From Parcubacteria group bacterium Gr01-1014_8 (GTDB taxonomy: Bacteria > Patescibacteriota > Minisyncoccia > Phycocordibacterales > UBA2100), in contig VMGC01000003.1 in the NCBI GenBank assembly GCA_007376385.1, forward strand, positions 1 through 64,000: DNA of 64,000 nt, in the 5' to 3' direction. The notes below the pieces were generated by a model that was given only the letters and a program-made list of their open reading frames with translations, made no database searches and was not told the origin of the DNA. Position numbers and translations under genes: made by a program. Position 1 is the stretch's first letter; each line of letters starts with the position of its first letter. Below are positions 138 to 58,828 of this stretch, one piece after another.

Positions 138-389
138 ATGCTACTATGCCGCCACATGGTTCTCCTCCAGCAAGCGCTTCCCTACGTGCAAATAGGCCTT
201 TCGGTCCTATTAATGCTGGCTATTTTGCTGCAGAGAACAGGCGCATCGCTCGGCGGCGCATTCGGCGTCGACAACTTCAGCTCCGGTTTCCACACTCGCA
301 GGGGGTTGGAGAAAACTTTGTTCCAAGCTACCATTGTGCTCGGTATCCTTTTCGCTTTGTCAGCACTCGTTAATCTTATTATCAGTTGA
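138..389 (+). CDS. secG: preprotein translocase subunit SecG
   Basis: 83 aa with two TM segments and a conserved glycine-rich motif LLQ..GASLGGAFG, as in E. coli SecG. Confidence 0.7.
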   Translation: MLLCRHMVLLQQALPYVQIGLSVLLMLAILLQRTGASLGGAFGVDNFSSGFHTRRGLEKTLFQATIVLGILFALSALVNLIIS

Positions 390-545
390 GGATAGCGAGC
401 GACAAGAAGACATCTTGACGTCTTTTTGTCAGAGCGACGAAAACTGCGAATAATTATTTATTATTTTATCAGTTAGTTTTAGTTGTCGCGAGATACGCGC
501 GACACCCGGCATCAGTTCGGTTATCTCTCTTTTTGTCAGTGAATT

Positions 546-2503: not shown

Positions 2504-4354
2504 ATGTTCCCTCAATCACATCCCCCTACCCCCCCAGGCCCAGGCCAAAGCGGCCGCGGTCCTCGGCCTCCCCGAAGAGGTTTTGCTTCACGGCGGCCTC
2601 CAAGACAGAGGCGAATGCGCGTCGAACACCAAACATCCTCGCGAGAACGTGCACGCACTGCAGCAGCACCTATACCACCTCCTTCAGCTGACACCGTTCG
2701 TATAATCCCTCTCGGAGGCGTTGAAGAGATAGGACGCAATATGACTGCCATCGAGTTCGGCAATGATATCTTCGTTCTCGACTGCGGATTCCAATTTCGC
2801 GAAGAAGAGACGCCTGGGGTTGACTACATATTGCCGAACACCGGGTATCTTGAAGAGCGCCGAGATAAAATTCGCGGACTTCTGATCTCCCACGGTCACC
2901 TCGACCACATCGGCGGCATCCCCTACGTTTTGGATAGAATAGGCAACCCGACCATTTACACCCGCCGTCTGACCGGCAAGATGATACAAAAGAGACAAGA
3001 GGAATTCGCGCAGACGACGCCGGCAAACATACGCGAAGTCGAAAAAGATGAGGTGATAAAACTTGGCGCAGCAACCATCCGTTTTTTTGGCGTAACTCAC
3101 ACTGTCCCCGACTCGATGGGCATCATTATCGAAACTCCATGGGGAGATGTCGTGTTCACCGGAGACATAAAACTGAATCACGATAATGGACAGCCCTCAG
3201 ATGAGGAAGTCCGGGAGTTTGGGGTATTCAAAAATCGCAAGGTTTTATGCCTCCTCATGGACTCAACGAACGTCTGGCAACCAGGATTCTCCATTCCTGA
3301 GAGAAATGTGTATGAGACGCTTGAGAATATCGTCAAGAATTCCCACGGACGACTTATCATCGCGATGTTTGCCTCGCACCTGGAGCGACTGATCCGCGTC
3401 GTGCATTTCGCAGAAAAATACGGAAAGAAAATAGTCATTGATGGCAGGTCAATGAGAACGAATATCGAGATAGCTCGCGAACTCGGATTGATAAAATACA
3501 AAGACGACACTGTCGTCGCGGTAGAAAACCTTGCGCAGTACCCGCCCGAAAGAATGGTCATCCTTGCGACCGGAGCTCAGGGAGACGAATTTGCATCCCT
3601 AGCTCGCATCGGGAATAAATCACACAAATATATCCGACTGCAGCCAACAGATACTATCGTACTTTCGTCATCCGTCATTCCTGGCAATGAACGAGCTGTT
3701 CAAAAACTGAAGGACAATCTCTCGCGCCAGGGAGCGCACATCATTACCTACCATGCATCTGACGTGCATGCCTCCGGCCACGGAAATCGAGAAGAAGCTG
3801 TCTGGATACATAAACAGGTCAAGCCAAAATTCTTCGTTCCTCTGCATGGCTATCACTACATGCTTCGCGTTCACGCTGATCTCGCAGAAGAATTGGGTGT
3901 GCCTGCTGCGAACACCGTTGTTCCTGACAATGGCTCTGTCATCGAAATAACGAAGGGAGAAAAAATAGTAAAGACCAACCACAAAGCCCCATCGGAATTG
4001 CGCGTCGTTGAAGGACACACCGTGAGCGAACTTTCCGACGTTCTGATGCGTGACAGAAAAGCGCTTGGGCAGGAAGGATTCTGTGTTGTCGTCGCGACAG
4101 TCGATAGACGAAGCGGGAGACTGCACAAATCTCCGGATATCATCTCGCGCGGGTTCGTATACCTGCGTGACAACAAAGAACTTATGGACCAGACTCGGCT
4201 CATCATCAGAAAAAGCGTCGAACAGTCCATGCGGAACCCGCGCTCGGCCGATCTAGATGCGGCGCGAGAAGATCTTGCCGATTCAGTTGCACGGTTCCTG
4301 CTTCAGAGGACAATGAAAAGACCAATAGTCATACCGGTCATTGTCAGCATTTAA
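2504..4354 (+). CDS. rnj: ribonuclease J (metallo-beta-lactamase/beta-CASP RNase)
   Basis: ISHGHLDHIGGIPYV zinc motif plus beta-CASP and C-terminal domain. An unusual Pro/Arg-rich extension of about 60 aa makes the true start uncertain. Confidence 0.9.
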   Translation: MFPQSHPPTPPGPGQSGRGPRPPRRGFASRRPPRQRRMRVEHQTSSRERARTAAAPIPPPSADTVRIIPLGGVEEIGRNMTAIEFGNDIFVLDCGFQFREEETPGVDYILPNTGYLEERRDKIRGLLISHGHLDHIGGIPYVLDRIGNPTIYTRRLTGKMIQKRQEEFAQTTPANIREVEKDEVIKLGAATIRFFGVTHTVPDSMGIIIETPWGDVVFTGDIKLNHDNGQPSDEEVREFGVFKNRKVLCLLMDSTNVWQPGFSIPERNVYETLENIVKNSHGRLIIAMFASHLERLIRVVHFAEKYGKKIVIDGRSMRTNIEIARELGLIKYKDDTVVAVENLAQYPPERMVILATGAQGDEFASLARIGNKSHKYIRLQPTDTIVLSSSVIPGNERAVQKLKDNLSRQGAHIITYHASDVHASGHGNREEAVWIHKQVKPKFFVPLHGYHYMLRVHADLAEELGVPAANTVVPDNGSVIEITKGEKIVKTNHKAPSELRVVEGHTVSELSDVLMRDRKALGQEGFCVVVATVDRRSGRLHKSPDIISRGFVYLRDNKELMDQTRLIIRKSVEQSMRNPRSADLDAAREDLADSVARFLLQRTMKRPIVIPVIVSI

Positions 4355-5285
4355 GGTACCCATTGCCTGCCCTTGAACCAATTTTGGCTTTCAGCGATGG
4401 GAATTGAACAGCGCAAGAATGAAAGGTTTCAACCCCCAAGGCAAGCCCTGGACTCTGGAAAACGAGCACCGCTCGTTTCCCAAATTCCGCGGCCTGTCTG
4501 CGTGCATCGCACAGGCCTAGTCCTTCAGAAACAAGCGACTGAAACGCAGTAGTATAGGCGTCTTTGTAACTGCGCCGAACGTCAGTGAGGGATGTATTTT
4601 TCGCGATCGCTTTTAAAATTGCTCCCCGCACTTGTCGCAAGGAACCCTCGAATCTTGATTGTTTTGAGTGATGTGTACTGCGTCGCGAGGGATTCGGATA
4701 CATGTGCTTGAGATGCGTCCCATAATCCATGAGCGCCGAATACCATATGCGCGGTTCCCGTCTACCAATTGCTGCTTCAACGATTGGAAACAGCTCTTTG
4801 TCCTCGACCTTCTTTTTTCTAGGAAAAAAATGGTGGATGAACACTGCGCGTATATTTGTTTCGATAAAAGTTTCAGGCATATTGAATGCGAACGCCCGAA
4901 CAGCTTTCGCCGTGTAATCCCCTATTCCCGGCAACGCACGCAGCTCTTCATAACTCTCGGGGATCTTTCCGGCGTGGTTCTGCACGATTGCACGCGCCGC
5001 GTCGTGCAAATACTTCGCTCGCCGATTATAGCCAAGTCCGCTCCACACGTTCAAGACATCTACGAGCGACGCTTGTGCCAGTTTTTTGACAGTCGGAAAT
5101 TTCTCCAGAAATTCTTTGTATTTTCCAATGACCCTATGAACCTGCGTCTGCTGAAGCATTATTTCGGAGATGAGTATCTTGTATGGATCTTCCGTTTTTC
5201 TCCAGGGCAGATCTTTCCGCCCATGCGCTCGAAAAAACTCCAGAACAGTTCGTCTAAACGAAGTGTATCTGGCGTCTGTTGTCAC
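4344..5285 (-). CDS. HhH-GPD DNA glycosylase, MutY/EndoIII-like, no obvious Fe-S cysteine cluster
   Basis: MLQQTQVHRVIGKYKEFLEKFPTV...LPGIGDYTA helix-hairpin-helix motif. The last 60 or so codons run through an intergenic-type repeat, so the 3' end is uncertain. Confidence 0.65.
   Translation of the reverse strand: MTTDARYTSFRRTVLEFFRAHGRKDLPWRKTEDPYKILISEIMLQQTQVHRVIGKYKEFLEKFPTVKKLAQASLVDVLNVWSGLGYNRRAKYLHDAARAIVQNHAGKIPESYEELRALPGIGDYTAKAVRAFAFNMPETFIETNIRAVFIHHFFPRKKKVEDKELFPIVEAAIGRREPRIWYSALMDYGTHLKHMYPNPSRRSTHHSKQSRFEGSLRQVRGAILKAIAKNTSLTDVRRSYKDAYTTAFQSLVSEGLGLCDARRQAAEFGKRAVLVFQSPGLALGVETFHSCAVQFPSLKAKIGSRAGNGYLKC
4411..4441. repeat. partial copy of the intergenic repeat family (shares gaaaggtttcaaccccc with the copy at 28939)
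   Basis: 17 nt exact match to 28939-28955. The adjacent 11-mer ggcaagccctg is the reverse complement of cagggcttgcc in the other copy. An imperfect hairpin lies nearby at 4440-4470. Confidence 0.4.
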
Positions 5286-5621: not shown

Positions 5622-6311
5622 CTAAGGCGTATATACGACATCCTTTCGCTCAACGACCACCTTCCACTTCATGCGTTTGGCCGTTTTATAGAGCTTCATA
5701 TTAGGGTTGAAACAGATGGGCTGTGCGACCATTTCTAGGAATGAAATATCCGATTCCGTATCGCCAACACCGATCGACCTCGTCAGGGTCAGGCCTTCAT
5801 TTTCTACCGCTCGACGTACGATATTTGCTTTGTTGTATATAAGATGCTCATCAACAACGCGCCCAGTAAACAGCTCCTGGGGGCCTATTTCATACACCAG
5901 CCCATATGCCTTATCAAAACCAAGACGCGGACAGAATTTATCCAACACGGTTTTGGGTGAATGCGACACAGCAAGCAAGAAATATCCTTTTTTCTTCAAT
6001 TCTGGCAAGAGGTCGCGCGTATAACGATATGTTTGCTTCCACCTCGCCTGCACCATCCTTTCAGCAGCATCTGCGAGCGCAGAATAGTGGAGACCCTTTA
6101 AATGTTTGCGAAATGCCTGGACCAGCGCATCAACGTACGCGCCATAGTCCCCTTCTCGGTCGAGCCATTTCTGCCTCTCTCGTTCGTAGACGGCTTCAGC
6201 CTCCTTTGGAAATGAGCCGTCTTTAATTAGTTGGTCTACAAGCTGGATGAGTAAACTTGAGCGAAAAATTGTGCCGTCGACGTCAAAAATCGCGACCCTA
6301 CGTTTCTCCAT
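5622..6311 (-). CDS. HAD-superfamily hydrolase
   Basis: N-terminal AIFDVDGTI motif I (DxDGT) and downstream HAD motifs. Confidence 0.7.
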   Translation of the reverse strand: MEKRRVAIFDVDGTIFRSSLLIQLVDQLIKDGSFPKEAEAVYERERQKWLDREGDYGAYVDALVQAFRKHLKGLHYSALADAAERMVQARWKQTYRYTRDLLPELKKKGYFLLAVSHSPKTVLDKFCPRLGFDKAYGLVYEIGPQELFTGRVVDEHLIYNKANIVRRAVENEGLTLTRSIGVGDTESDISFLEMVAQPICFNPNMKLYKTAKRMKWKVVVERKDVVYTP

Positions 6312-6335: not shown

Positions 6336-6445
6336 CAAATAAAGGGTATTCATACCGCGGGGTATTCGACCCTATGTTGGCTCCTCGGTTCGGAAATGAA
6401 AGTTAATACTTTCTCGCTTCGCTCGCAACGCTCGCCAATAAAGAT
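6336..6445 (-). repeat. intergenic repeat family copy E (minus orientation), about 85 percent identical to copy A
   Basis: The reverse complement reads tttattggcgagcgttgcgagcgaagcga...tttcatttccgaaccgaggagccaacatagggtcgaatacc, matching 24289-24370. Confidence 0.6.
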
Positions 6446-6561
6446 CAGGTGGGGGCCAGAGCTTTTGAGTCCGCGAGCGAGTGAACGCTGCTTTCCGCAA
6501 GATTAGCCCCCCGCTTCCGCAACGATAATACTCTCGTACCTTATAACATCAAGCTCCGCCG

Positions 6562-7758
6562 TTACTGTTTCTTTCCTCCACCAACTTTTTTCAAAATATC
6601 TGACGTAAAACTGAATGTCATCTTTTTCTTGCCCTCGAACCTCTCCTCTCCTAATCTCATGAGCTCGAGTACGAGTTCCATGCTTGAAAGACCTGTTTTT
6701 TTCCAGTTGTGATGATACAGGCTCCCTGGCAGAGTATTCACTTCATTCACGTATACTTTTTTCGAGTCTGCGTGAACAAGAAAGTCCACACGCGCGATAC
6801 CTGCGAGATCAAGTGCCCTATATACCCGAACCCCTAGGTCTTTGATTTCCGCCGTAAGTTCGTTGCTTATCTTTGCAGGAATTTCACTGTATTCAGCATT
6901 TACTCCTCCCCCGCCGCCTTTTTTCCCCCCGGAAAGATATTTGTCGCTAAAGTCGAAAAATTCAGTCTTGTTCAATGGTCTTTCGCAGTGCGCGGTTCGA
7001 ATTTCGTCATTTCCCATGATGGGCAGTGTGATTTCGATGAGCGGCTCGACGCTTTCTTCAACGAGTATCTTATTGTCATAGTGCAGAGCAACTTCAATCG
7101 CATTTTCAAGTTCCGATCCACTTTTAACTTTTGCCATACCTATCGAGGAGCCGAGATGAACCGGCTTAACAAAAAGCGGCCATTTTAAGTTCTTGATGGA
7201 TGTTAAGAGCGCGTCTTTATTCTTCGCCCATTCAGGTTTTGTAAACCACACGTACGGAACGACCGGCATGCCTTCAGCGGCAATTACCTGTTTCGTAAGA
7301 ACTTTGTCCATCGCAACTGCCGAGCCGAAAATATCACAACCGACAAACGGTACATTCGCCATGCGGAGAAGTCCCATCAAGGAGCCGTCTTCTCCATATG
7401 TGCCGTGCATTGAGGGAAATGCAACATCTATCTTCACCGTCTTTTTAAGAAACCCCGGCCACACAAGTGAAAATCCATTTTCAAATGAAAGCTGCACTTG
7501 TTTCTGTTTTTTAAGATGAGCTTCGTAGTCTGGGTCCTTGAAGAACGTGAGGTTATTCATCGACTTTTCCGAATACCATGCGCCTTCTTTCGTAATGTAC
7601 ACTGGCCACACGTCAAATTGCCCGCTTGCAAGCAACGATTCGATGATGGGAATATGTGCAGTTATCGTCGAAACATCATGTTCCGCGCTGCGTCCTCCAA
7701 AAATAACCGCTATAGACTTCACTTCTTGATTATATGTCACACGTACTGGTCCGGCCAA
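6562..7758 (-). CDS. ddl: D-alanine--D-alanine ligase
   Basis: ATP-grasp fold, N-terminal VIFGGRSAEHDVS motif. Lies downstream of murF as in dcw clusters. Carries a Gly-rich insertion. Confidence 0.9.
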   Translation of the reverse strand: MAGPVRVTYNQEVKSIAVIFGGRSAEHDVSTITAHIPIIESLLASGQFDVWPVYITKEGAWYSEKSMNNLTFFKDPDYEAHLKKQKQVQLSFENGFSLVWPGFLKKTVKIDVAFPSMHGTYGEDGSLMGLLRMANVPFVGCDIFGSAVAMDKVLTKQVIAAEGMPVVPYVWFTKPEWAKNKDALLTSIKNLKWPLFVKPVHLGSSIGMAKVKSGSELENAIEVALHYDNKILVEESVEPLIEITLPIMGNDEIRTAHCERPLNKTEFFDFSDKYLSGGKKGGGGGVNAEYSEIPAKISNELTAEIKDLGVRVYRALDLAGIARVDFLVHADSKKVYVNEVNTLPGSLYHHNWKKTGLSSMELVLELMRLGEERFEGKKKMTFSFTSDILKKVGGGKKQ

Positions 7759-13405: not shown

Positions 13406-14458
13406 ATGTTCCATTTACTTGAACGATACACAGTAGAGAGCGTGACGTGCGGCCATCCTGATAAGGTCTGCGACCAGATATCAGACGCCATTCTCGATGC
13501 GATGCTTGAGCAGGATCCATATAGCCGGTCAGGGGTTGAAACGTTCGGAAGCCACGGAACTCTCATGATAGGCGGAGAAGTAAAGACGAGGGCGAAAGTA
13601 GATTTTGAGAAGATAGCGAGAAAAGTCTACAAAGATATAGGATATACGGCAAAACTTGAAGTGCTTGTTCGTATCGCACAGCAGTCACCCGACATCGCCA
13701 TGGGAGTAGACACGGGAGGAGCGGGAGACCAAGGCATCATGTATGGATACGCGACAAACGAGACAAAGGAGATGCTCCCTCTCGGTGTTGTGCTCGTGCA
13801 TGCGCTTGCACGCCGCTTGGAAAAACTTCGACGCGATAAAACGCTCAAGTGGCTCCGTCCCGATGGAAAAACACAGGTTACGATCGCGAACGGCAAGGTT
13901 ATAACCGCACTTTGCTCGACGCAGCACGACAATAAAGTGTCGCAAGAGGAAATCAGAAAACAGCTCATCAAGCACCTATTCACGCCTGTTCTCGGTTCAG
14001 TAAAAAATATTGAGATCCTAGTCAATCCAACGGGACGGTTCGTCCAAGGCGGGTTTGAAGCTGACGCAGGACTGACAGGTCGCAAAATTCAGGTGGACAC
14101 ATATGGCGGTCTGATGCCGCACGGAGGCGGGTGTTTCTCCGGAAAAGAGCCGATGAAAGTGGATCGTTCTGCCGCGTACATGTGCCGTTTCGTCGCAAAA
14201 AATCTCGTTGCAAATAAATATGCGAAGAAGGCCTTAGTGTCTGTCGCATATGCTATCGGGCGAGCAGAGCCTGTGATGATCGAAGCATTTGACGAGAAGG
14301 GAAAAAATCTAACTTCTATCGTAACGAAGAACTTTGATTTCCGCCCGCAAGCCATTATTGAGAGACTCGACTTACGCCGCCCCATCTATCAGGAAACAGC
14401 AGCATATGGACACTTCGGCGTAGCGGGCCGCTCATGGGAAAAAATAATTAAAATTTGA
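13406..14458 (+). CDS. metK: S-adenosylmethionine synthetase
   Basis: GHPDKVCDQISDAILDA N-terminal signature, GAGDQGIMYGYA motif. Confidence 0.9.
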   Translation: MFHLLERYTVESVTCGHPDKVCDQISDAILDAMLEQDPYSRSGVETFGSHGTLMIGGEVKTRAKVDFEKIARKVYKDIGYTAKLEVLVRIAQQSPDIAMGVDTGGAGDQGIMYGYATNETKEMLPLGVVLVHALARRLEKLRRDKTLKWLRPDGKTQVTIANGKVITALCSTQHDNKVSQEEIRKQLIKHLFTPVLGSVKNIEILVNPTGRFVQGGFEADAGLTGRKIQVDTYGGLMPHGGGCFSGKEPMKVDRSAAYMCRFVAKNLVANKYAKKALVSVAYAIGRAEPVMIEAFDEKGKNLTSIVTKNFDFRPQAIIERLDLRRPIYQETAAYGHFGVAGRSWEKIIKI

Positions 14459-14550
14459 AGGGCAATCTTTGCTAGCGCGTCATTCGAAAATGAATACATG
14501 CGTTGCACTCACTTCCTCACAATCCTCGTTAGATAGGCTAGAATGCTCGG

Positions 14551-24288: not shown

Positions 24289-24405
24289 GTTTATTGACGA
24301 GCGTTGCGAGTGAAGCGAAAATGTACTCATTTTCATTTCCGAGCCGAGGAGTCAACACAGGGTCGAATACCCTTTATCTGGCATTGCCGTCGAAAACGGC
24401 AATGT
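24289..24405 (+). repeat. intergenic repeat family copy A, with a downstream 9 bp hairpin
   Basis: tttattgacgagcgttgcgagtgaagcgaaaatg...cattttcatttccgagccgaggagtcaacacagggtcgaataccc, then CATTGCCGTcgaaaACGGCAATG. Confidence 0.6.
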
Positions 24406-28223: not shown

Positions 28224-28940
28224 GTGAAAGCTATTTTCTTTATTCTTGTCATTTCGTTCTTCAGCGCAGTTCAGTGGGTATCAAATATCGCGCTTCCTCC
28301 TCTTCCTCCCTCAACCGCACAGCAGACTGCTTCTGTTTCCATCTCCACGACAGATACAACCGAAACTTCGCCAACATCAAAAAAGTCAGAGCAAAATACT
28401 GCCGCATCTTCGCTGGTGCCAAAACAGTTGCCCGCGGCTTCGACACAACAACCTCATCCGTCCAACAAATTTCCCGAGCAGACAACCCCTCCGACACCGA
28501 TCACATTATCTGTAGAAACTGAAAAAGATTTCTTAACAAAAGTTGAGATAGAAATATTCTTGCTTACTAATAAAGAGCGCACAGCACTGGGACTCCCCTC
28601 GCTTGTCACAGATACTGAGCTTGCGGCAATTGCTGAAGCACACAGCAAGGACATGCTCATGAACGACTACTTCTCGCATGAAGATAAGAGCGGATGCAGT
28701 TCATCATGCCGGGCAAATAACAGAGGATACTCTTGGTCAACAATTGGAGAGAATATTTATATGATGTCCGGTTACGAACTTTCCGCAACAGAAGCTGCCG
28801 CAATGATCGTACAGGGCTGGATGAACAGCCCCGGACATCGTGCAAATATCCTGCGTCCTGCCTTTACTCACCTTGGCGTCGGTGTTGTTGCGGAAGGGAA
28901 AAACGTCTATTCAACGGCGCTTTTCGCGAAACCGAGATGA
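28224..28940 (+). CDS. secreted CAP/SCP/PR-1-like domain protein with Ser/Thr/Pro-rich linker
   Basis: Signal peptide, low-complexity T/S/P/Q linker, C-terminal CAP domain (EAHSKDM...GHRANIL...HLGVGV). Confidence 0.7.
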   Translation: MKAIFFILVISFFSAVQWVSNIALPPLPPSTAQQTASVSISTTDTTETSPTSKKSEQNTAASSLVPKQLPAASTQQPHPSNKFPEQTTPPTPITLSVETEKDFLTKVEIEIFLLTNKERTALGLPSLVTDTELAAIAEAHSKDMLMNDYFSHEDKSGCSSSCRANNRGYSWSTIGENIYMMSGYELSATEAAAMIVQGWMNSPGHRANILRPAFTHLGVGVVAEGKNVYSTALFAKPR

Positions 28941-29046
28941 AAGGTTTCAACCCCCAGGGCTTGCCGCGGGATTTTGAACCTGTGCTGTCTACGTCGCTCG
29001 GAAATGCGAAACCTGCGCTTTCGCATTTCGCGTGCTACCCTCGACA
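28938..29046 (-). repeat. intergenic repeat family copy B (diverged, minus orientation) between convergent genes
   Basis: Contains GAAATGCGAAAcctgcgcTTTCGCATTTC (29001-29029), catttccgagc and acaggttcaaaatccc. Its 3' end gaaaggtttcaaccccc is shared with 4411. Confidence 0.5.
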
Positions 29047-29054
29047 GATAAAAA

Positions 29055-30371
29055 CTACTGAAGCTTCTGGTTTGCGATATTCATTTCTTCCAGTTCGATC
29101 TGCACTTCTGCCGGGACCTCCTGGGATGTGTCCTTTTTTAACAATCGGAACGATCCGCCTACGATCGCAACAATTGTCGCGATACCGCCGATTGCAAGAC
29201 CCCAGCGCGCACCAACATATTCGCCGATCCAACCCACAAGCGGCCCTCCAAGCAACGTGCTGCCGGTGATCGCCATTGTCCAGAGCGCCATTACTCGTCC
29301 GCGCATCTCAGGCACGCTTTCCAGTTGAACCATCGTGTTTGCAGAAGAAGACATGTTGATCGAGAACAAGCCGACCAAGATCATGCCACCTATCGCAGAA
29401 ACTAACGTTGGAGCGAGAGCAGTGCCAATGATGGAGATACCGAATAAAAGCCCGAAAATTACAAAGAGATGGGGCGCGACAGTATGTCTGCTTGCAGCAT
29501 ATAGGCCGCCAATTACTGACCCGATGCCAAAAGCCGACATAAGAGCCGCATACGCGCTCACATCGGAAAGAAACGTTTGCTCTGCAAATATCGGGAGACT
29601 TATCTGAAACTCGTACGCGAATGTACCAATAACTGCGATCATTATCAAGATGCCCCGAATACGAGGCATCGATTGTACGTAGCGAAACCCCGCCCGCAAT
29701 TGCCCCGATCTTGTGCCTATGGGTGGCGAGCGATGTAATTCTTTTTCTTTCATCAAAAAGAGCATCCATATGACAGCCACGTAGGTGAATGCATTGAATA
29801 GAAAACAAAATGCGATGCCAGCGGTCGCGATAAGAATTCCTCCGATTGACGGCCCTACTGCTCGCGCAAGATTATTGACCGTTGAATTAAGACTCACAGC
29901 ATTATTCAGGTGTTTCGCATCTACCATTTCAGATACAAACGTCTGACGTGTGGGATTATCAAAGATCCGGATGAGACCCCATACGAAAGCAAACACGAAA
30001 AGCATCCACGTACGCATAGTGCCCGCATACACAAGAACACTCATGCAAAGGGCAAGGATGCCGAGCGCCGCTTGGGTAAGCAGCAATATCTTCCGCTTGT
30101 CGAAGCGATCCGCCACAACACCTCCCCACACACCAAACACTAAGAGCGGGAAAAACTGCGTCGCAACGATCAAACCGAGCTTGCTACCGGACCCAGTAAC
30201 TTGGAGCGCAAGCCATCCAAGAGCGATCAATTGCATCCAGGTACCTGAAAGAGATACCGCCTGACCGATAAAATATAGACGATAATTACGAATAGCGAGC
30301 GACGCAAAAATCCGCCCGAAAAATACCCCGATTTGTCGCATCGTGCCATGATAGCGCACATTCAATCTCAC
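29055..30371 (-). CDS. MFS transporter
   Basis: 12 TM helices, MFS-type loop motif. Confidence 0.8.
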   Translation of the reverse strand: MRLNVRYHGTMRQIGVFFGRIFASLAIRNYRLYFIGQAVSLSGTWMQLIALGWLALQVTGSGSKLGLIVATQFFPLLVFGVWGGVVADRFDKRKILLLTQAALGILALCMSVLVYAGTMRTWMLFVFAFVWGLIRIFDNPTRQTFVSEMVDAKHLNNAVSLNSTVNNLARAVGPSIGGILIATAGIAFCFLFNAFTYVAVIWMLFLMKEKELHRSPPIGTRSGQLRAGFRYVQSMPRIRGILIMIAVIGTFAYEFQISLPIFAEQTFLSDVSAYAALMSAFGIGSVIGGLYAASRHTVAPHLFVIFGLLFGISIIGTALAPTLVSAIGGMILVGLFSINMSSSANTMVQLESVPEMRGRVMALWTMAITGSTLLGGPLVGWIGEYVGARWGLAIGGIATIVAIVGGSFRLLKKDTSQEVPAEVQIELEEMNIANQKLQ

Positions 30372-42906: not shown

Positions 42907-42942
42907 ATGATACCGCGATTGAGACTCCGAACGCAAGCGAAT
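42907..42942 (-). promoter_or_regulatory. putative sigma70-type promoter for tRNA-fMet
   Basis: Minus strand reads TTGCGT, 18 nt spacer, TATCAT, 7 nt, then tRNA +1. Confidence 0.3.
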
Positions 42943-43042
42943 TTTATTTGCGACGTAGAGCGAGTGAAATGCAAAAGAGCACTTTTGCATTTCCGAGCCG
43001 AGGAGCAAACACAGGTTCAATACCTCGCAGCTTTGCTGCGAG
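42942..43042 (+). repeat. intergenic repeat family copy C with downstream hairpin
   Basis: gcgagtgaaatgcaaaagagcacttttgcatttccgagccgaggagcaaacacaggttcaatacc, then CTCGCAGCtttgGCTGCGAG. Confidence 0.6.
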
Positions 43043-43096
43043 ACAGGGCGAGCGAAGCGAGCTCCATAATACCTCGGGGCTTGCTCCGAGGGACCT

Positions 43097-43786
43097 TTAT
43101 TCAATATATTTGAATTCTCTAAAAACGCGCTCATACATTCGTATCACGCGTTTTGCTTCGCGCGCATCAAGCTGAACATTTGCACTATCGTGCACAACAC
43201 GATTTCTTATTTTGTGAGCTTCCCACGCGAAATCGATCGAATTGAATGCCTCAATAGGAATTTGCTTCATTTTATCTGCCATTGTTTCCCCTTTATATCC
43301 GAGCACATCCAAGAGGTCATTCAGCATGATATCCGCTTCAAGTATGGCAAGCCGCCATTTTTCCACATCTTCTGAATTCACCTGCTCCCAAATTCGACGC
43401 CAGCGAAGCTGTGTCCTAGACAGATCTTGGCTGACAATTGGTCGAGCACCGGCAGCCATAGCTGTTCGCTCAATGCGGCGTATCTGCAGGATGCGCACAA
43501 CGCAATAGATGATGCCGGCGCCAAGGACAAGTGAAAGAAATGTTGCAAGGGGAAATATCGGCCCCCAGAAATTTAGGATCGTATCGACTGACCAGCCGGT
43601 CGTCACCTCCTGCTGTATCGACTGCACGATTGGCGTTGGCTCCGGATAGACACTGGGATCATAGGTAAAGGGCGAGGGCGGCGGTGCGTCTCCGTAGCCC
43701 GCATCATAGAACCACGCCAAGGTAACGCTCTCAAAAAAATGAACTACTGCCCAGTAGGCATCTCCAAGTGAACTTCCTCCATTCAT
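43097..43786 (-). CDS. hypothetical single-pass membrane protein with a cytoplasmic RNxxxH (HEPN-like) motif domain
   Basis: About 80 aa N-terminal segment, one TM helix, then a basic stretch and a 130 aa alpha-helical C-domain containing EAHKIRNRVVHD (Rx4H). Confidence 0.4.
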   Translation of the reverse strand: MNGGSSLGDAYWAVVHFFESVTLAWFYDAGYGDAPPPSPFTYDPSVYPEPTPIVQSIQQEVTTGWSVDTILNFWGPIFPLATFLSLVLGAGIIYCVVRILQIRRIERTAMAAGARPIVSQDLSRTQLRWRRIWEQVNSEDVEKWRLAILEADIMLNDLLDVLGYKGETMADKMKQIPIEAFNSIDFAWEAHKIRNRVVHDSANVQLDAREAKRVIRMYERVFREFKYIE

Positions 43787-47586: not shown

Positions 47587-47997
47587 CTAGTACCGCAATT
47601 CGACGGAACGCTGAAGCGCACGAGCACTCGTCCCAATAGAAGCACAGCTAGTGCTGTATCCGTCCGAGTGAATAGTGGTCCGAGGATAAAAGTTTCGTTT
47701 CGTTACAACTACTCTCACGCAGCGCCCGTTTGGTTCGAATTCGTACGAGAACGTCACCGTCCACGGAGCATACGATGCCTGGCTATAGTACGAGCCTTCG
47801 GCGTAGTAAGAAGACTGGCTGTAGTACGTGCTTTGCGAATAGTATGTTGATTGACTGTAGTATGTACCTTGAGAATAGTACGTCCCCTGCGAATAGTATC
47901 CGCCTTCACCATACGCAGCGTATGCAAAAAAGGGCACCGCGCTCAACAAAAAGACAAGAGCAAACAGAAACTTCTTCTTTTGTTGCGATACGTTCAT
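47587..47997 (-). CDS. secreted tyrosine-rich tandem-repeat protein (YYSQxT hexapeptide repeats)
   Basis: Signal peptide, then (G/S)TYYSQ repeated about 7 times, encoded by an 18 nt tandem DNA repeat. Confidence 0.55.
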   Translation of the reverse strand: MNVSQQKKKFLFALVFLLSAVPFFAYAAYGEGGYYSQGTYYSQGTYYSQSTYYSQSTYYSQSSYYAEGSYYSQASYAPWTVTFSYEFEPNGRCVRVVVTKRNFYPRTTIHSDGYSTSCASIGTSARALQRSVELRY

Positions 47998-48002: not shown

Positions 48003-48314
48003 CTATTGAGCTTGGGTCGTTACGTTAACGGTTTGACCATCGCACGTTATTTGCTCAGGCGGAGATGACGTTGAAAATAGCTCATGACGAATATCCCAAT
48101 AGAGCGCACATTCTGCCCCAGTGTCTGCAGCGTAAAATGCGAATTGCGAATCTCTTCCTATGGAAGAAAGAATGACGCTTTTACGCGCGATGGTTACGAT
48201 AGCCAGTCCCAGCGCGAGTGAAAGCGAGGCGATAAGAGCCGAAAGAAGGAGTGTAAAACCGCGGCTTTTTTCCTTTGGAAATTTCATATCAATATCATTA
48301 CAACGCGCTGCCAT
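48003..48314 (-). CDS. pilin-like / pseudopilin protein
   Basis: KSRGFTLLLSALIASLSLALGLAIV N-terminus is pilin-like but lacks Glu at +5. Confidence 0.5.
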   Translation of the reverse strand: MAARCNDIDMKFPKEKSRGFTLLLSALIASLSLALGLAIVTIARKSVILSSIGRDSQFAFYAADTGAECALYWDIRHELFSTSSPPEQITCDGQTVNVTTQAQ

Positions 48315-49068
48315 CTTCTACCCAGCGGTATAAGTTCTCGGAGATGGTGAACGAACGCGGTTGAAACGAACCGCTACGCCACTGTACAGTCACGCTGACC
48401 CTTATTTCGTCTGGTGCATTTATGAACTTGACATGCGCGGTACGCGTAAAGCGCGTTGCAGTCCATCCCGACAGGCCTCGGCCATACCCATACAAATTAC
48501 CATCTGTCTCTAGCGGTGGACATGTGCCGGATGTACATACGCTTGCGTCCATGTAATTGTCGCGTGTATCTATAACGAACGGGGCATCATTCGGGATGCC
48601 TTCAAGCAAGTCTACAGCTGTGCCCAAAGCGTTCTCTAGTATGTGCCCGTCACGTACGGATCGAACTGATTCAATCGCCTCTTGTGCCAGATGGAACGCC
48701 GTTATCTGATCTCTCGCATAGAAAGCAGTGGCCAGACTTTGCGCGACGAGTCCCATCGGAACCACGATAGCTATTGTGAGGAGCGAGATCGCTACCAACG
48801 TCTCAATGAGCGAGAACCCCGAACTGTCAGATGCTCTTTGCGGATCACGCAATAAAAAAGCCCGCCCCGCCGTTCCTCGCCTCATAGAGGCGAGGTATTC
48901 CGCGGGACGGGACCAGGCTTTTGTTTTGGAATAGGAATCGACCACCGTCGATTCGAGTTTAGTGTGCATCCCCGCAGCAAGCTGCGGGATATTGCACGCC
49001 AATAAAAGACCGGACATCGGTTTTCCTTGACTTGAAGCGCGTGAACCTGGACGCAGATGCTTTATCAT
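48298..49068 (-). CDS. type IV minor pilin (prepilin N-terminal domain)
   Basis: GFSLIETLVAISLLTIAIV class III signal with E+5. Confidence 0.7.
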   Translation of the reverse strand: MIKHLRPGSRASSQGKPMSGLLLACNIPQLAAGMHTKLESTVVDSYSKTKAWSRPAEYLASMRRGTAGRAFLLRDPQRASDSSGFSLIETLVAISLLTIAIVVPMGLVAQSLATAFYARDQITAFHLAQEAIESVRSVRDGHILENALGTAVDLLEGIPNDAPFVIDTRDNYMDASVCTSGTCPPLETDGNLYGYGRGLSGWTATRFTRTAHVKFINAPDEIRVSVTVQWRSGSFQPRSFTISENLYRWVEDGSAL

Positions 49069-49703
49069 AGGTCTAGTATTCGCTGCGCCGCCGTCGCTTG
49101 TATGGAATAGGTAGTCTTTGTTTTTACTTTTGCTGCACCAGCAATGCCTTTCACGACAATAACGACTTTAGGCTGAACAGTATCACCCGGCGTAGTGCCC
49201 ACTACGTAAAACGCCATCTCTTCAATACTGACCTCTTCTGCCGTTATGGGAAATTCTGTTCCCCCTCCATTTTCAGATTTATATATTCGTTTCGTTTCTG
49301 CATCATATCGGTACCTCCACTGGTCATTAACATCACTTGAACTTCCGCCGAAAGGCTCGAACGCGAAGGACGTACCGGGAGTATCCGCGCAATCCTGCGG
49401 GATTGTCTGCGTCCCGCTGCCGCAATGATAGGTACTGCCCATGCGGATAGCGCGCACCATGCCATCAAGGGCTATGTTCAAATTATTCATCACTGATTCG
49501 AGCGCCCGAGCTTTTCTGTTGGCATCAATGAGAGAAACGAGCGCCCCGAGACCAACGAGCATAACGATCGCAAAGAGCCCCACTGAGACGACCATTTCGA
49601 CAAGCGAAAATCCGGGGGAGTGTCCTCCATGGAATACAGAACGCGAGGAATGAGGGTGAATCCCCTTTTTTTCCGTACTCCTTGCCGTTGATCTTGGTTC
49701 CAT
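49065..49703 (-). CDS. type IV minor pilin
   Basis: PGFSLVEMVVSVGLFAIVML prepilin motif. Confidence 0.7.
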   Translation of the reverse strand: MEPRSTARSTEKKGIHPHSSRSVFHGGHSPGFSLVEMVVSVGLFAIVMLVGLGALVSLIDANRKARALESVMNNLNIALDGMVRAIRMGSTYHCGSGTQTIPQDCADTPGTSFAFEPFGGSSSDVNDQWRYRYDAETKRIYKSENGGGTEFPITAEEVSIEEMAFYVVGTTPGDTVQPKVVIVVKGIAGAAKVKTKTTYSIQATAAQRILDL

Positions 49704-49704
49704 A

Positions 49705-50385
49705 CTATCGTACTGAGATCTGCCCTGTCGCTTCGACGATGATCGACTTCGTATCTCCTCGAGGTGAACGAACGACTATCCGCGCGTTCTGCTGACAATT
49801 CGCGAGTGAGAGAAGACACGAGAGATCATTCGCACTTATAAGCGCATCCGGTTCCGGTCGTCTAAAGAGAATATCCAACTTCGAGACCGCCGTACATGTG
49901 CTTGCGTCCGCACCTGCGGGTACGCAAAGCCTGCCGACCGAAAATCCACCTGCAAGCGTCGATGCTTGCTGCAGCTCGCACGTCGCTGAAGAACTGGAAT
50001 CAGGACAATCATACAAACCATTCTCGATGACCGCGTCCGCAAAGATCTGGTAGGACGTAGGGTCAGAACTCGCGAAATGCATTCCATAGGATGCCCCGAA
50101 ATTACCGGCGCCGAAGCGCTGCACGGCGATGCCATAGACTTGCGTCTGGCTTACGGAGAGGGCGACATCATACGTCAAATTTTCCAACGTTATTGCCGCC
50201 CCGAATTTTGAATAATTTGCCAGGAGAATTGATGAAATGATCACAAAGATTGCCGTAACAACCATGAGCTCGATCAGCGTGTATCCTCCATCAGAAGATG
50301 CTTCCGCCGCGTCAGAACCTTTTTTTGAACGCGTTCGTTCACTTCCCCGCACAACGCTTCCTACGGAAGAAAAGGAATGGATATG
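49705..50385 (-). CDS. type IV minor pilin (start uncertain)
   Basis: GYTLIELMVVTAIFVIISSILLA prepilin motif. The annotated 365 aa ORF overlaps pilD in another frame, so a later GTG/ATG start is assumed. Confidence 0.6.
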   Translation of the reverse strand, partial: HIHSFSSVGSVVRGSERTRSKKGSDAAEASSDGGYTLIELMVVTAIFVIISSILLANYSKFGAAITLENLTYDVALSVSQTQVYGIAVQRFGAGNFGASYGMHFASSDPTSYQIFADAVIENGLYDCPDSSSSATCELQQASTLAGGFSVGRLCVPAGADASTCTAVSKLDILFRRPEPDALISANDLSCLLSLANCQQNARIVVRSPRGDTKSIIVEATGQISVR

Positions 50386-51170
50386 CCGTATACGTTCAAT
50401 TGCCATACTAGTATGCAGCTTGCGATGAGAAAGGGACCAAAGGGAACCTCGCTCTCCATTGTAAAGCGCGGAGCGCCCCTGCTCAATGGAGTTATCCCAA
50501 TCTTCTCCGCATACGCAAGAAGCACAGGAAGCGGGAGTAAGATACAGACACTTACGACGGCACCGATAATGAACGCACATAGTATGGCAAAAGGACCCGC
50601 GATGGGTCCTAAAAGAAAACCAATAGTAAATGCAAGTTTTACGTCGCCGAGTCCCATCCATTTGCCTCTCGACACAAGCCACAGCGAAAAAAGCGGCGTT
50701 GCAGTGGCAAGAGCGCCAAGAACTACGTATGTAATTTGGGACGCCTCTTCCATCGCAAGGAGGCCATACACAAATGCGACTACGCCCGCTGCATAGCTCC
50801 ACACATCAGGAATAACTGTGTGGTATATATCGTACACAGTGATCGCTACAAAGAGTGCCATGATGAGCACTCCTAAGATCTTTAATTCGATAGGAAGCGG
50901 GGAAAGACCCACCAGAACAAAAAGTAGCGCCGTTCCTATTTCAACCAGTGGATATTGCAAAGATATGCGATTCTTGCAATAGCGACATGCGCCCCCTAAG
51001 TAGACAAAAGAAAACACGGGTACGAGATCGACAACCTTGAGTACCGTCCGACACGAAGGACATGCGCTTCTTCCCATCAAATCCCGCTTCCCTTCTCGCA
51101 GGATAAGCACATTCACAAAACTCCCAATGATCAACCCAGATGCGCCAAAGAGGAATGCTTCGAGGACCAC
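50361..51170 (-). CDS. pilD: prepilin peptidase (A24 family)
   Basis: N-terminal CxxC...CxxC zinc motif, 6 to 8 TM helices, catalytic Asp context. Confidence 0.85.
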   Translation of the reverse strand: MVLEAFLFGASGLIIGSFVNVLILREGKRDLMGRSACPSCRTVLKVVDLVPVFSFVYLGGACRYCKNRISLQYPLVEIGTALLFVLVGLSPLPIELKILGVLIMALFVAITVYDIYHTVIPDVWSYAAGVVAFVYGLLAMEEASQITYVVLGALATATPLFSLWLVSRGKWMGLGDVKLAFTIGFLLGPIAGPFAILCAFIIGAVVSVCILLPLPVLLAYAEKIGITPLSRGAPRFTMESEVPFGPFLIASCILVWQLNVYGISIPFLP

Positions 51171-51246
51171 AGGGAAAAGAATAGCACAACGCCCCCTCCT
51201 TGGGGGCGTTGTGTATCCGCTCTTTTAGGCGGTAGAAGACTTTCCC

Positions 51247-51756
51247 CTACGGCTTCACGCAATACGACGGATCATCACATGTGGTAGCGCCACCTGCGAG
51301 CCCCGCCCAAAGTCCGTCAACGTCACCGAGTGGAACCGCGCTAGCGCCTCCTTCGATAACTGATTTAATGACGTAGCTAGAGCACGGCACTGCCGTACAT
51401 GCTGCACCTGCCCCGTCGGCAGAAGCATACGAGTACACGTACGAACCACTGTTCGTCGGGTCACTTGATATCTGTGAGATGAACTGCTCTGTGACAAGAG
51501 CCCCAAGTCCGCTGGCAGCACCCATGTCTGTTGTGCCAGACACACCACCCGCAACAACTGCTGGGTATGATTGGTGCGCATCGTAGTACAACTCAAGCGC
51601 TAACTGCATTTGCTTCATGTCCGCGATGCGGCGTGCATCACGTCCCTTCTTTCGCGCGCTGTTCAAGGACGCAAGAACGACGGACGAAAGAATACCGATG
51701 ATGGCGATAACCACCAATAGTTCAATGAGAGTGAAGCCTCTCGATGTTCGATTCAT
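51247..51756 (-). CDS. pilA: type IV major pilin (PilA-like)
   Basis: RGFTLIELLVVIAIIGILSSVVLASL. Start is probably the internal Met before the leader. Confidence 0.8.
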   Translation of the reverse strand: MNRTSRGFTLIELLVVIAIIGILSSVVLASLNSARKKGRDARRIADMKQMQLALELYYDAHQSYPAVVAGGVSGTTDMGAASGLGALVTEQFISQISSDPTNSGSYVYSYASADGAGAACTAVPCSSYVIKSVIEGGASAVPLGDVDGLWAGLAGGATTCDDPSYCVKP

Positions 51757-51791
51757 AAAATAAGATTTATTACTAATGTTACTAATAATGG

Positions 51792-52265
51792 CTAATTGCA
51801 ACCGGATCGAACGCTTCCGTTTGCATCAACGTATACCATTCCAGGGGTCGTCCGGGGCCCCGTTCCGACTTCCAGATATGCACACGCTTGCCAATTCTGG
51901 GTAGTCGCCCCCCCTGTTGAGAGATCCGCCTGCGTACCGATGGCATAATCGCATGCACTGCCCGATCCTTCAGTGCAGGCGGTGGTGGAGCCGGAGGGAT
52001 CTTTATATGCCGACAGATCTGGCGTCGTACACGTGCTGACTCGAGCTGCCCCTGATGTGCAACCTACAAAGGTCGTAGCAGCTCCACCCGTATCAGCAAT
52101 GGCAACTGCGTTGCCTATTTGGCGAAGATCCTCTACGCGGCGCGTATCGCGGCCTTTTTTACGAGCATTATTCAAGGACGCCAAAATGACCGAGGACAAG
52201 AGCCCAATAACCGCAATAACCACCAATAGTTCAATGAGAGTGAAGCCTCTGTTTTTTTCTTGCAT
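51792..52265 (-). CDS. pilA: type IV major pilin paralog (PilA-like)
   Basis: MQEKNRGFTLIELLVVIAVIGLLSSVILASL. Confidence 0.8.
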   Translation of the reverse strand: MQEKNRGFTLIELLVVIAVIGLLSSVILASLNNARKKGRDTRRVEDLRQIGNAVAIADTGGAATTFVGCTSGAARVSTCTTPDLSAYKDPSGSTTACTEGSGSACDYAIGTQADLSTGGATTQNWQACAYLEVGTGPRTTPGMVYVDANGSVRSGCN

Positions 52266-52365
52266 AGCGGATCATTAACACAGCGTCTCCCCACTTTTCA
52301 CAGGGCGGCCGCCTAATTATACGGAATTATTGACGTCATTGGCGTCTGCCTGTGGATAGCTTCAT

Positions 52366-53574
52366 CTAGAGACCCGACGCAATGTTGTAGATAGGAACAA
52401 GAACAGCCGCGAGCAGTATTGCAACCCCAAGGGCGAGCCCTACGATCATCACCGGCTCGATAAGAGAAACAAGAGTATCTATTGCATTATTGACTTCCCG
52501 CCGATAGTAACGCGACATCGTGTCCAGAATATTGCCCATATTGCCGGTCTCCTCTCCTATCTTCATCATCGCGACGATGATACCCGGAACTTCCGGATGT
52601 TTGCGGAATGCTTCGGATACGGGGAGTCCCGCCTTCACATCGGTAGCAACTTCTGTTAATACTTTTTCATAGGTGACATCGCCCACAACGCTTGCAGTGA
52701 TCTCAAGCCCGCGCAGCATTTGAATGCCACTTTTTAACATTGTTGCGAGGTTGTCGGACATGCGGGAGAGGTAAAGCTTTCGATAAATGACGCCAATGAT
52801 CGGCATCTGCAATCTTGCTCGCGAGAGAAAAAGCATGCCGTTCTCGCTCTTGCCATATCGGAATATGAAAACGCCGCTAATAACAAGAAGGACCCCCAAG
52901 AGTAATATGTAGTTTGATAGAAATGTGCTTATGCCTATGACTATTCTTGTGTAAATAGGCACGGCCTGTCCTACCTCCTCAAGCATCAGCGCGAGACGCG
53001 GTATGACAAGAGTGAGCATAAGGATCATAACAACCACGAACGTAAGCAGAATGAACGCTGGATAGACGAGCGCATTTTTCGCTTTTTGCGTGATCTCATA
53101 GTTTCTGTCGAGGTACTCCGCAAGAAATGCGAACGTCTCGTCTAATTTACCCGTTTCCTCGCCGGCGCGAACCATGTTCACATAGAACGGCGAGAACACA
53201 TCTGGCTGACGCGAAAGAGCAGCCGCTATAGAGCTTCCACTTTGAATGTCATTCGCGACTTCAGTGAGTTTTTCGGCAAGCTTCGGTGTTCTCGCCTCAG
53301 CTGCTAGCAATCTGAATGCGCGAAGCGCAGATACCTGTGCTTCGAAAAGCGTGGTTATCTGGCGCGACACCATCACAAGATCGGAACTCTTTATCCTGTC
53401 AAATATCGCAACACGCGAAGTGAACGATTGCTTGATCTCAACCGGTTCTATGGAAGAGATGATCAAGCCTCTTCTCTGTATTGCGGTGATCGCAAGGTCT
53501 ATGTTCACCGCATCAATGGTGCCAGTGCGCTCTGTCCCGGTTTGATCAAGTGCTTTGTAAGAAAAAATTGCCAT
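52366..53574 (-). CDS. pilC: type IV pilus platform protein PilC (GspF family)
   Basis: Two T2SSF repeats, 3 TM helices, 402 aa. Confidence 0.9.
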   Translation of the reverse strand: MAIFSYKALDQTGTERTGTIDAVNIDLAITAIQRRGLIISSIEPVEIKQSFTSRVAIFDRIKSSDLVMVSRQITTLFEAQVSALRAFRLLAAEARTPKLAEKLTEVANDIQSGSSIAAALSRQPDVFSPFYVNMVRAGEETGKLDETFAFLAEYLDRNYEITQKAKNALVYPAFILLTFVVVMILMLTLVIPRLALMLEEVGQAVPIYTRIVIGISTFLSNYILLLGVLLVISGVFIFRYGKSENGMLFLSRARLQMPIIGVIYRKLYLSRMSDNLATMLKSGIQMLRGLEITASVVGDVTYEKVLTEVATDVKAGLPVSEAFRKHPEVPGIIVAMMKIGEETGNMGNILDTMSRYYRREVNNAIDTLVSLIEPVMIVGLALGVAILLAAVLVPIYNIASGL

Positions 53575-53595
53575 GAAAACAGAATATCGAGCTGT

Positions 53596-54904: not shown

Positions 54905-54913
54905 TGCGAGCGT

Positions 54914-55360: not shown

Positions 55361-55377
55361 ACAGGATCATTTCTCTT

Positions 55378-58136: not shown

Positions 58137-58141
58137 ATATC

Positions 58142-58819: not shown

Positions 58820-58828
58820 AAAAACTGT

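Follow-up and report, generated by a model that had tools for sequence, protein, structure and literature searches.

A structured, mobile repeat of Candidate Phyla Radiation bacteria without terminal inverted repeats or target-site duplications

What kind of element is a family of short, hairpin-containing repeats that recurs between the genes of a Parcubacteria genome? The question is raised by a stretch of 64,000 nucleotides (nt), positions 1 to 64,000 of contig VMGC01000003.1 from Parcubacteria group bacterium Gr01-1014_8 (assembly GCA_007376385.1), a small bacterium of groundwater; we refer to the whole of this stretch as 'the window'. A sequence-only reading had noted in it at least four copies, and one fragment, of a repeat about 100 nt long, and had offered several explanations: REP/MITE-like elements (repetitive extragenic palindromes or miniature inverted-repeat transposable elements), small RNA genes, or terminator modules with an extra domain. 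Our verdict is that the element is a structured mobile repeat of bacteria of the Candidate Phyla Radiation (CPR, or Patescibacteria), and that it has neither terminal inverted repeats nor target-site duplications. The genomes of these bacteria are very small, and are usually described as poor in mobile DNA. The density in the window, about one copy per 13 kb, corresponds to roughly 60–80 copies per 1-Mb genome, and at that density the repeat would be a real factor in CPR genome evolution.

The repeats do exist, and the first observation can be both confirmed and enlarged. All four reported copies, designated E, A, C and D, lie in the window where they had been placed. The 18-nt core, CATTTCCGAGCCGAGGAG, has three matches there at three or fewer mismatches, against 0.06 expected; repeat finding pairs E with A over 83 nt at 88% identity and A with D over 59 nt at 80%, and gives weaker matches to C. 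A covariance model made from the wider family, and run over the window with its filters off, recovers the same four copies at 83, 83, 65 and 44 bits (E-values 2e-16 to 1e-7). The total is five, one more than had been counted, the additional one being a diverged copy, F, at 376–469 (+). Two weak matches to the model, at 14446–14536 (20 bits) and 62815–62902 (16 bits), were not accepted as copies. The '17-nt piece' placed at 4411 does recur, but its true size is that of a whole 3' domain of about 100 nt (4419–4517, −) without the 5' core. All five copies are intergenic, as had been said of the entire family; this fragment lies within an open reading frame (ORF), and therefore not every piece is intergenic.

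The family extends well beyond the window. A 28-nt degenerate pattern, searched exactly against 185,579 species-representative GTDB genomes, finds 10 loci, nine of them in genomes with CPR labels (Parcubacteria, Saccharibacteria, Zambryskibacteria, Kaiserbacteria and 'bacterium CG10'), and a 24-nt exact pattern finds a further 71 in metagenomes. These 81 loci (numbers with the prefix 'L' denote loci from other sequences than the window) come almost entirely from CPR genomes or groundwater metagenomes. This wider search, advised when the repeats were first noted, thus disposes of the fear, voiced with it, that the copies might be a local segmental duplication. The tenth GTDB locus, L004 (CAZSGI010000003.1), is labelled 'uncultured Gammaproteobacteria bacterium', which could reflect the mis-binning of a CPR contig or a genuine presence beyond the CPR. 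Pattern scans of viral contigs, phage records and plasmid records did not find the core. Some 20 matches lie 200 nt or less from a contig end, as would be expected if the repeat interrupts assembly. Rfam 15 has no family that matches the window at its gathering threshold, and at E-values up to 10 copies D and A give only chance hairpin matches, all of 20 bits or less; the models compared included the hammerhead, twister, twister-sister, pistol, hatchet, hairpin and hepatitis delta virus-like ribozymes, group I and group II introns, and the IS605-orfB motifs. No description of the repeat came to light in literature searches, whether made by sequence or by topic.

The element is about 90–190 nt long, and has no ORF and no terminal inverted repeats. 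Its consensus reads, from the 5' end, TTTA-TTRGC-GACGTAGAGCGAGN-GAAATG-(variable stem and loop)-CATTTC-CGAGCCGAGGA-GCYAA, and continues from there as C-ANAGGKT-(0–3 hairpins)-AMCCTNT-AT-3'. Three helices organize it. P1 is a long-range helix, TTRGC with GYYAA, whose middle pair is A-U or G-C in 19 sequences each, G-U in 4 and U-A in 2; its forms among the window copies are TTGGC/GCCAA, TTGAC/GTCAA, TTTGC/GCAAA, CTGTC/GACAG and CAGTT/AACTG. P2 is a hairpin of 12 base pairs (bp), conserved in its outer half and variable in its inner half. P3 closes the 3' domain, which can be a plain hairpin (~20 nt), can carry one additional hairpin (~40 nt), or, in its largest form, can be a cloverleaf-like four-way junction with three hairpins (~90 nt). 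The P3 loop is varied (TAAT, TTTTT, TGCT or CAG), and in other copies one to three hairpins stand in its place. Inserts of 60–85 nt occur in the P2 loop or in the J1/2 segment at loci L030 and L078, and hairpin tips of the CUUG type, and triloops, recur.

Copy D (42943–43100, +; 83 bits) is the canonical, full-length form. It begins with TTTAT at 42943–42947 and terminates with TTTAT at 43096–43100; 42947–42951 pairs with 43005–43009 in P1, 42966–42977 with 42982–42993 in P2, and 43011–43017 with 43092–43098 in P3, which encloses three hairpins. It had been located correctly, but its end had been set at 43042, short of these three extra hairpins of the 3' domain. The minimum free energy (MFE) fold of copy D reproduces P1, P2, P3 and all three hairpins, with a z-score of -4.9. 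The stem first described for the family, GAAATGCRAAAG/CTTTYGCATTTC, is present in C and D but not in E and A, in which the outer stem is GAAGCG/CATTTC.

Throughout the family, the helices change in sequence and remain paired. In an alignment of 47 sequences, 93.2% of cells are paired, compared with 82.0% in shuffles; 13 of the 24 pairs have changes on both sides, and these involve 127 cells where 37.5 are expected. None of 500 shuffles attains the observed values, and slid controls are 37–55% paired. P1, P2 and P3 all covary, and so the compensatory substitutions anticipated for the hairpin are present in three helices rather than one; simple decaying duplicates, the alternative named at the outset, would lack such covariation. 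The sequences were gathered by an exact pattern over J2/1 and parts of P1 and P3, and these columns are therefore fixed by selection; the interior of the P3 insert was removed. MFE folds of the unaltered window copies give the same P1, P2 and P3, and RNAalifold, by itself, predicts P1, P2 and the core of P3.

Copy C (28937–29054, −; 44.4 bits) and copy F (37 bits, E-value 6e-6) form a second subfamily, recognizable by aligning one with the other. In C, P1 is CTGTC/GACAG and the internal loop is GAGGGTAGCACGC / CGAGCGACGTA; in F, P1 is CAGTT/AACTG, P2 is GACAAGAAGAC/GTCTTTTTGTC, and P3 is AT-rich. The two align in the conserved segments, and P1 and P2 of copy F are fully compensated. A hidden Markov model, which considers sequence only, scores copy F at merely E 2.9.

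Between P1 and P2 lies an internal loop of about 25 nt, purine-rich on both strands and nearly invariant. By inspection, and from what is known of sheared G·A tandems, it can form two tandem G·A/A·G motifs bordered by C-G pairs: CGAC/GGAG beside P1, and CGAG/CGAG beside P2. Alignment column 19, which is opposite an invariant G, is either C or U. Read in this way, the 5' domain is better described as a single, long, irregular rod, and such a rod can form solely on the purine-rich strand. Of 50 elements, 39 fold more stably on the strand given here than on the other (p about 1e-6), and G-U pairs outnumber A-C pairs by 30 to 16, an asymmetry in agreement with a rod on the purine strand. The fold that selection maintains is that of a single strand.

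The element also behaves like mobile DNA. Copy D is missing from the matching site, between a gene and tRNA-Met, in relatives whose orthologs of gene 43097–43786 are 80%, 69% and 67% identical in protein sequence, and in which the stop codon of this gene leads straight into the spacer and tRNA-Met. The flank that these relatives share with the window begins again precisely at TCAATATA, behind the final TTTAT of copy D. Read on the other strand, this TTTAT provides the TAA stop codon of the same gene; an ortholog without the element has a TGA stop at the same position. The genes ddl and HAD hydrolase are separated by 250 nt in the window, where copy E lies between them, and by 2 nt in the nearest relative, whose HAD protein is 89% identical. 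The covariance model finds no copy in 21 kb of sequence from relatives of the window. In one metagenome, 157-nt copies that are 96–98% identical occupy four different, fully sequenced sites, and several more are cut by contig ends. Empty matching sites, and near-identical copies elsewhere, argue against a host gene conserved by position. We conclude that the element is dispersed, and that some copies were amplified recently.

A fragment of the element has been taken into a protein. The 4419–4517 piece, identified by repeat finding and by its fold, comprises three hairpins and AACCTTTCAT; its segment 4419–4460 is 79% identical to 28937–28978 of copy C, and it folds with a z-score of -3.35. The ORF at 4344–5285 (−) encodes an HhH-GPD (endonuclease III-like) protein with a C-terminal extension that reads through this fragment. 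The protein is 219 amino acids (aa) long in the nearest relative (L088 2445–3104), and 313 aa in the window. The additional C-terminus is translated from the fragment and the sequence behind it; the insertion thus seems to have displaced the final codons of the gene together with its stop codon.

Where, then, does the element insert? Copies begin immediately 3' of TTTAT, or of variants such as TTGAT, CTAT or a run of T, which is often the T-tract of a terminator. Over 57 distinct sites, the flank before TTRGC is T in 54, 57, 75, 96 and 94% of cases and then A in 96%; the TTA directly 5' of the element is thus 94–96% conserved. Nothing is conserved farther upstream, past the T-run or TTTAT, and the element therefore has no promoter of its own. 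At the 3' end, the sequence is T, N, T, A, T, followed by T at 76%. The two motifs resemble each other, but they are not copies: the N of TNTAT pairs with column 74 within P3 and is independent of the 5' flank, and the pair of TTTATs is therefore no target-site duplication. Loci L065, L072 and L080 have TTTAT on the 5' side and TATAT on the 3' side, and L008 and L054 have TTGAT on the 5' side and TTTAT on the 3' side. No repeat extends beyond these motifs, and in the 47-sequence alignment the 5' end, TTGGCGACGTAGAG, bears no similarity to the reverse complement of the 3' end (ATAAAGGGTATT). The element, in short, inserts 3' of TTTAT without duplication and in fixed orientation to the motif.

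The element's own terminal motif may serve as such a neighbourhood. Partial copies adjoin the final TTTAT of complete ones at L061, L003 and L044, and behind window copy F, where the next sequence, TTATCAGTTAG, repeats the bases with which F begins. Such pieces may have been left by tandem insertion, or may be a transposition footprint. The 3' TTTAT is often followed by the first 6–25 nt of another element (TGGCGA…, TAGCGACGTAGAACGAG…, CAGTTAG…), and the sites in question are L061 (minus, ~1000–1160), L003 360–400, L044 (minus, ~1090–1130) and window 464–480.

How might such an element move? We consider, with a probability of roughly 0.55, that the repeats are a family of small, non-autonomous mobile elements of CPR intergenic DNA that are recognized as a folded single strand, and that move in the manner of IS200/IS605. 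A trans-acting enzyme would recognize the fold on one nucleic-acid strand, most likely of single-stranded DNA, and the element would be inserted and excised by 'peel and paste', as in IS200/IS605-type (HUH, Y1) transposition. The arrangement would be that of target, linker and hairpin at the left, and of hairpin, short linker and cleavage motif at the right, and P1 stacked on P3 would set both ends of the element side by side. Once inserted, the element would probably be neutral, or would act as an accessory hairpin or terminator.

The match to the IS200/IS605 type is drawn from the lack of terminal inverted repeats and of duplication, the T-rich target on the left, the same motif on the right, the structured subterminal regions, and the strand asymmetry. 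Like IS200/IS605 elements and PATEs (palindrome-associated transposable elements), the repeat has no terminal inverted repeats and duplicates no target; is inserted 3' of a short, T-rich tetra- or pentanucleotide (TTTAT for the repeat, TTAAT or TTCAT for the IS200 elements of the CPR); has structured regions near both termini, and one strand that folds better; places new copies at its own terminal motif; and shares its host genomes with Y1 transposases. The last of these we sought with phmmer, using an IS200 TnpA sequence as query, in 579 kb of element-bearing loci. A single Y1 ORF was found, at L080 7288–7704 (E-value 8e-34); its family is abundant in CPR data, with more than 7,000 clusters at an E-value of 1e-25 or below, mostly on contigs shorter than 1.5 kb.

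This enzyme belongs to a CPR element of the IS200 type, which encodes a 138-aa Y1 transposase (L080 7180–7780; L092–L095; L099–L101). Its ends, as seen in four identical copies on one 997-kb Nomurabacteria contig, are TTAAT or TTCAT followed by TGCGCCAGCCTAAA and a hairpin, and, on the right, a hairpin followed by TTGTTGATT. With the repeat it has in common a TTNAT target, and an arrangement of target, linker of 14–18 nt, and hairpin, with a second hairpin 5–9 nt from the other end. The left linker is 14 nt in the IS200 element; in the repeat, P2 lies 18 nt from the left end, and P3, or the last hairpin, 5–8 nt from the right end, and the sequences of P2 and P3 are unrelated. The left ends start with TAGCGAAG in the L080 element and with TAGCGACG in the repeat. 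At L099–L101, a copy of the repeat is situated about 25 nt from the IS200 element.

Several points weigh against movement in the IS200/IS605 manner. The hairpins of the CPR IS200 element, CCACCGCC/GGCGGTGG, are near-identical at its two ends and unrelated to P2 and P3; P2 and P3 are also unlike each other, whereas the left and right hairpins of IS200/IS605 elements are alike. In about 600 kb of element-bearing sequence, no autonomous copy and no enzyme with matching ends was found. Scarcely any space is available for a guide sequence 5' of P1. An invariant internal loop, covarying stems and variable-length insertions at the tips of helices are together what one classically expects of a functional RNA, such as a ribozyme, and our data fit RNA and single-stranded DNA alike. 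The strand asymmetry is moderate, and the 3' strand of P3 was placed at the best complementary stretch with AT directly behind it, which inflates its paired percentage. Unrelated IS hairpins that do not resemble P2 or P3, together with the lack of a transposase with the repeat's ends, mean that membership of IS200/IS605 is not established. The structures differ in other respects, too: the long-range P1 closes the entire left domain of the repeat; nothing in known IS200/IS605 ends corresponds to the internal loop of ~25 nt; the right-hand cleavage motif takes part in the base pairs of P3; and no cognate tnpA with the ends of the repeat was found in the 579 kb searched. A hunt for autonomous copies by other means (a 5' end without the core, the core without a 5' end, or a large cargo in P3) found just the 60–85-nt inserts of L030 and L078.

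Other known families bear partial resemblances. 'REP/MITE-like' is partly supported, being correct in kind and wrong in detail: the repeat is dispersed, multi-copy, ORF-less and intergenic, and is present or absent in relatives, but it has no terminal inverted repeats and no target-site duplication, and is not a simple REP palindrome. REPs, with the composite BIMEs and REPINs and their RAYT transposases, are likewise extragenic, numerous, often at gene 3' ends and dependent on hairpins; the repeat would, similarly, be mobilized in trans by a single-copy enzyme; and REPs have a conserved GTAG 5' of the main hairpin, which in the repeat is found 7 nt from the hairpin foot. REPs, however, are simple palindromes of 20–40 nt, and REPINs are inverted pairs of them, whereas the repeat is a multi-helix structure of 90–190 nt with a conserved loop, and no RAYT-like gene was found in the 579 kb with the IS200 query. 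MITEs, including Correia elements (NEMIS), and ERIC, RUP and BOX elements are comparable in being about 100–200 nt long, ORF-less, numerous and intergenic, and in their ability to provide stop codons or lengthen ORFs. They are defined by terminal inverted repeats and target-site duplications (of TA and similar sequences), and since both of these are absent, the repeat is not a classical MITE. Rickettsia palindromic elements, finally, are small, structured repeats that can be translated within coding sequence, as the 4419–4517 fragment is in the HhH-GPD ORF; they are as a rule in frame within genes, whereas the coding case of the repeat is single, and at the 3' end of a gene.

The strongest rival to IS200/IS605-like movement sees the repeat as a structured RNA with a function: a small RNA, or a ribozyme, self-cleaving or other, carried by a multi-copy unit or itself constituting one, in which the invariant loop would be the catalytic or protein-binding core and the helices no more than a scaffold. 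We regard this as possible, though well short of probable. It would account for some 25 loop nucleotides that are nearly invariant across genomes labelled Parcubacteria, Kaiserbacteria, Zambryskibacteria and Saccharibacteria while P1–P3 covary, for the confinement of variable hairpins to helix tips (the P2 loop or J1/2 in L030 and L078, and the P3 loop), for the recurrence of CUUG-type tips and triloops, and for the better folding of the forward strand, with its excess of G-U over A-C pairs and the z-score of copy D. But conservation upstream ends at TTTAT, leaving no promoter, and orientation to neighbours is random, so that read-through transcription would yield the wrong strand in half of the cases. 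The copies, moreover, are absent from matching sites in close relatives; the subfamilies are specific to genomes, which points to amplification within genomes over conserved genes; and no Rfam family of ribozymes or other RNAs matches, even at E-values up to 10. A mobile element that carries a functional RNA would reconcile the two views.

A bolder form of that compromise is that the rod of P1, tandem G·A pairs and P2, together with P3, is the core of an undescribed, self-mobilizing catalytic or guide-like nucleic acid: perhaps a new class of small ribozyme that frees or ligates the element at TTTAT, or the recognition module of a new single-strand transposition system peculiar to the CPR. This is speculative, and we think it doubtful; were the loop to prove catalytic or RNA-guided, the family would represent a kind of mobile, structured nucleic acid not seen before.

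It is unlikely that the repeat moves by way of an RNA intermediate, with the help of a ribozyme or a reverse transcriptase, like group IIC introns. These introns home directly downstream of terminator stem-loops, in terminator orientation, and have covarying helices, and the sites of the repeat are enriched in just such places: a hairpin of at least 6 bp abuts the T-run at 31% of sites, compared with 10% in the control flank. The T-run 5' of the element is 1 to 8 long, 4419–4517 is a 5'-truncated copy, and the covarying structure is ribozyme-like. Group IIC introns, however, are at least ~400–700 nt in length, with six domains and usually a reverse-transcriptase ORF, and none of these is found in the repeat, which at 90–190 nt is far smaller than any group II intron. 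It has no domain V/VI signature and no Rfam intron match; neither the window nor the 196 distinct neighbour proteins include a reverse transcriptase; and 3'-truncated pieces exist as well as 5'-truncated ones. The sole trait in common is the preference for sites behind terminator hairpins.

Less likely again is a transcription terminator, or an RNA-stabilizing 3' module with an extra domain, that is kept by the host and spread by recombination. The last hairpin of copy D with its TTTATT is flagged as terminator-like, and many copies are located at gene 3' ends; but roughly half of all copies run antisense to the preceding gene, copy A receives no such flag, the conserved 5' domain would have no role in termination, and matching sites in relatives are empty. 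For terminators and small RNA genes alike, it is also awkward that no conserved promoter precedes the element and that its orientation to neighbours is random. Least credible of all is an origin from tRNA, or from a decaying local duplication: GGGTCGAATACCC in A and E is T-arm-like, and copy D adjoins tRNA-Met, but this 'degenerate T-arm' is simply the tip of P3, whose loop varies freely in the family and is replaced by hairpins, ARAGORN and the Rfam tRNA models match only six true tRNAs in the window, the flanks of the copies share no similarity, and 81 loci lie elsewhere.

Several other candidates were set aside. Across all loci, no cluster among the 196 neighbour proteins exceeds three members, and the element has the same orientation as its neighbour or the opposite one in 33 and 27 cases upstream, and 31 and 29 downstream. 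A cis-regulatory leader or riboswitch is ruled out by these unrelated neighbours and random orientations, and a gene-linked guide RNA (TnpB/IscB omega RNA, bridge RNA, retron or CRISPR) by the lack of a recurrent protein among them. A small peptide read from the ATG that is conserved within GAAATG was rejected, the reading frame over the core differing among copies because P2 varies in length; so were an integron attC site, the R-box-like sequences being in the wrong order and P1 variable in sequence, and a bulge-helix-bulge intron, whose two junctions are unable to pair. Weak sigma-70-like matches occur at the 5' end of copy D, on the antisense strand and directed outward (TTCACT, 16 nt, TAAAAT; 42941–42968, −), and on the sense strand of copy A (TTGACG, 17 nt, GAAAAT). 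Neither is conserved enough to establish a promoter.

The copies occupy spacers between unrelated genes of the window. Copy A (24290–24377, +; 82.9 bits), detected also by repeat finding, is the smallest version, P3 being no more than a simple hairpin, and both genes that flank it run antisense to it. On its 5' strand, the internal loop shows the subfamily variant GAGCGTTGCGAG. Copy E (6339–6442, −; 64.9 bits) belongs to the same subfamily, has one small extra hairpin in P3, and is ~87–88% identical to A; the loop variant of E and A is in none of the other loci retrieved. Copy E lies between ddl (6562–7758) on one side and the HAD hydrolase gene (5622–6311) on the other. The 115 nt between ddl and copy E (6443–6561, +) contain, at 6475–6485, an 11-nt match, GAGCGAGTGAA, to the J1/2-P2 junction; a decayed, inverse second copy at this position was considered, and its alignment was unconvincing. 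Copy C starts directly behind the TAG stop codon of an MFS transporter gene (29055–30371). The spacers are those between a solute-binding-protein gene and a small ORF, ddl and the HAD hydrolase gene, a Na/Ca exchanger and a hypothetical gene, the MFS transporter and a CAP-domain gene, and tRNA-Met and a hypothetical gene that adjoins gatA. The remainder of the window consists of housekeeping genes and a type IV pilus cluster, and no transposase, integrase or reverse transcriptase is among the window genes.

Small as they are, these insertions have effects: a stop codon supplied by copy D, an ORF extended in the HhH-GPD gene, a spacer widened between ddl and HAD, and metagenome assemblies broken. 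The repeat is a useful marker for the annotation and binning of CPR genomes, and its conserved fold and invariant loop, shared across several CPR lineages, make it a well-defined substrate with which to find the enzyme or activity that recognizes it.

Some minor features of the region can be recorded here. A ParE-toxin gene is present between gatC and gatA in a relative (L086 695–1021; L087 638–964), and the gatC-gatA junction of the window is without it. A tandem repeat at 47767–47899, with a period of 18/36 nt (GTAGTA… units), lies in an ORF (47587–47997, −) of 136 aa that has no Pfam match and is located just upstream of the pilus cluster. This cluster (48298–59980, −) includes several prepilin-like genes with N_methyl motifs, a prepilin peptidase, a PilC-like T2SSF protein, two T2SSE ATPases, PilO and PilM. 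A direct repeat of 122 nt within it, 76% identical (51620–51741 and 52129–52250), corresponds to two adjacent, paralogous pilin genes.

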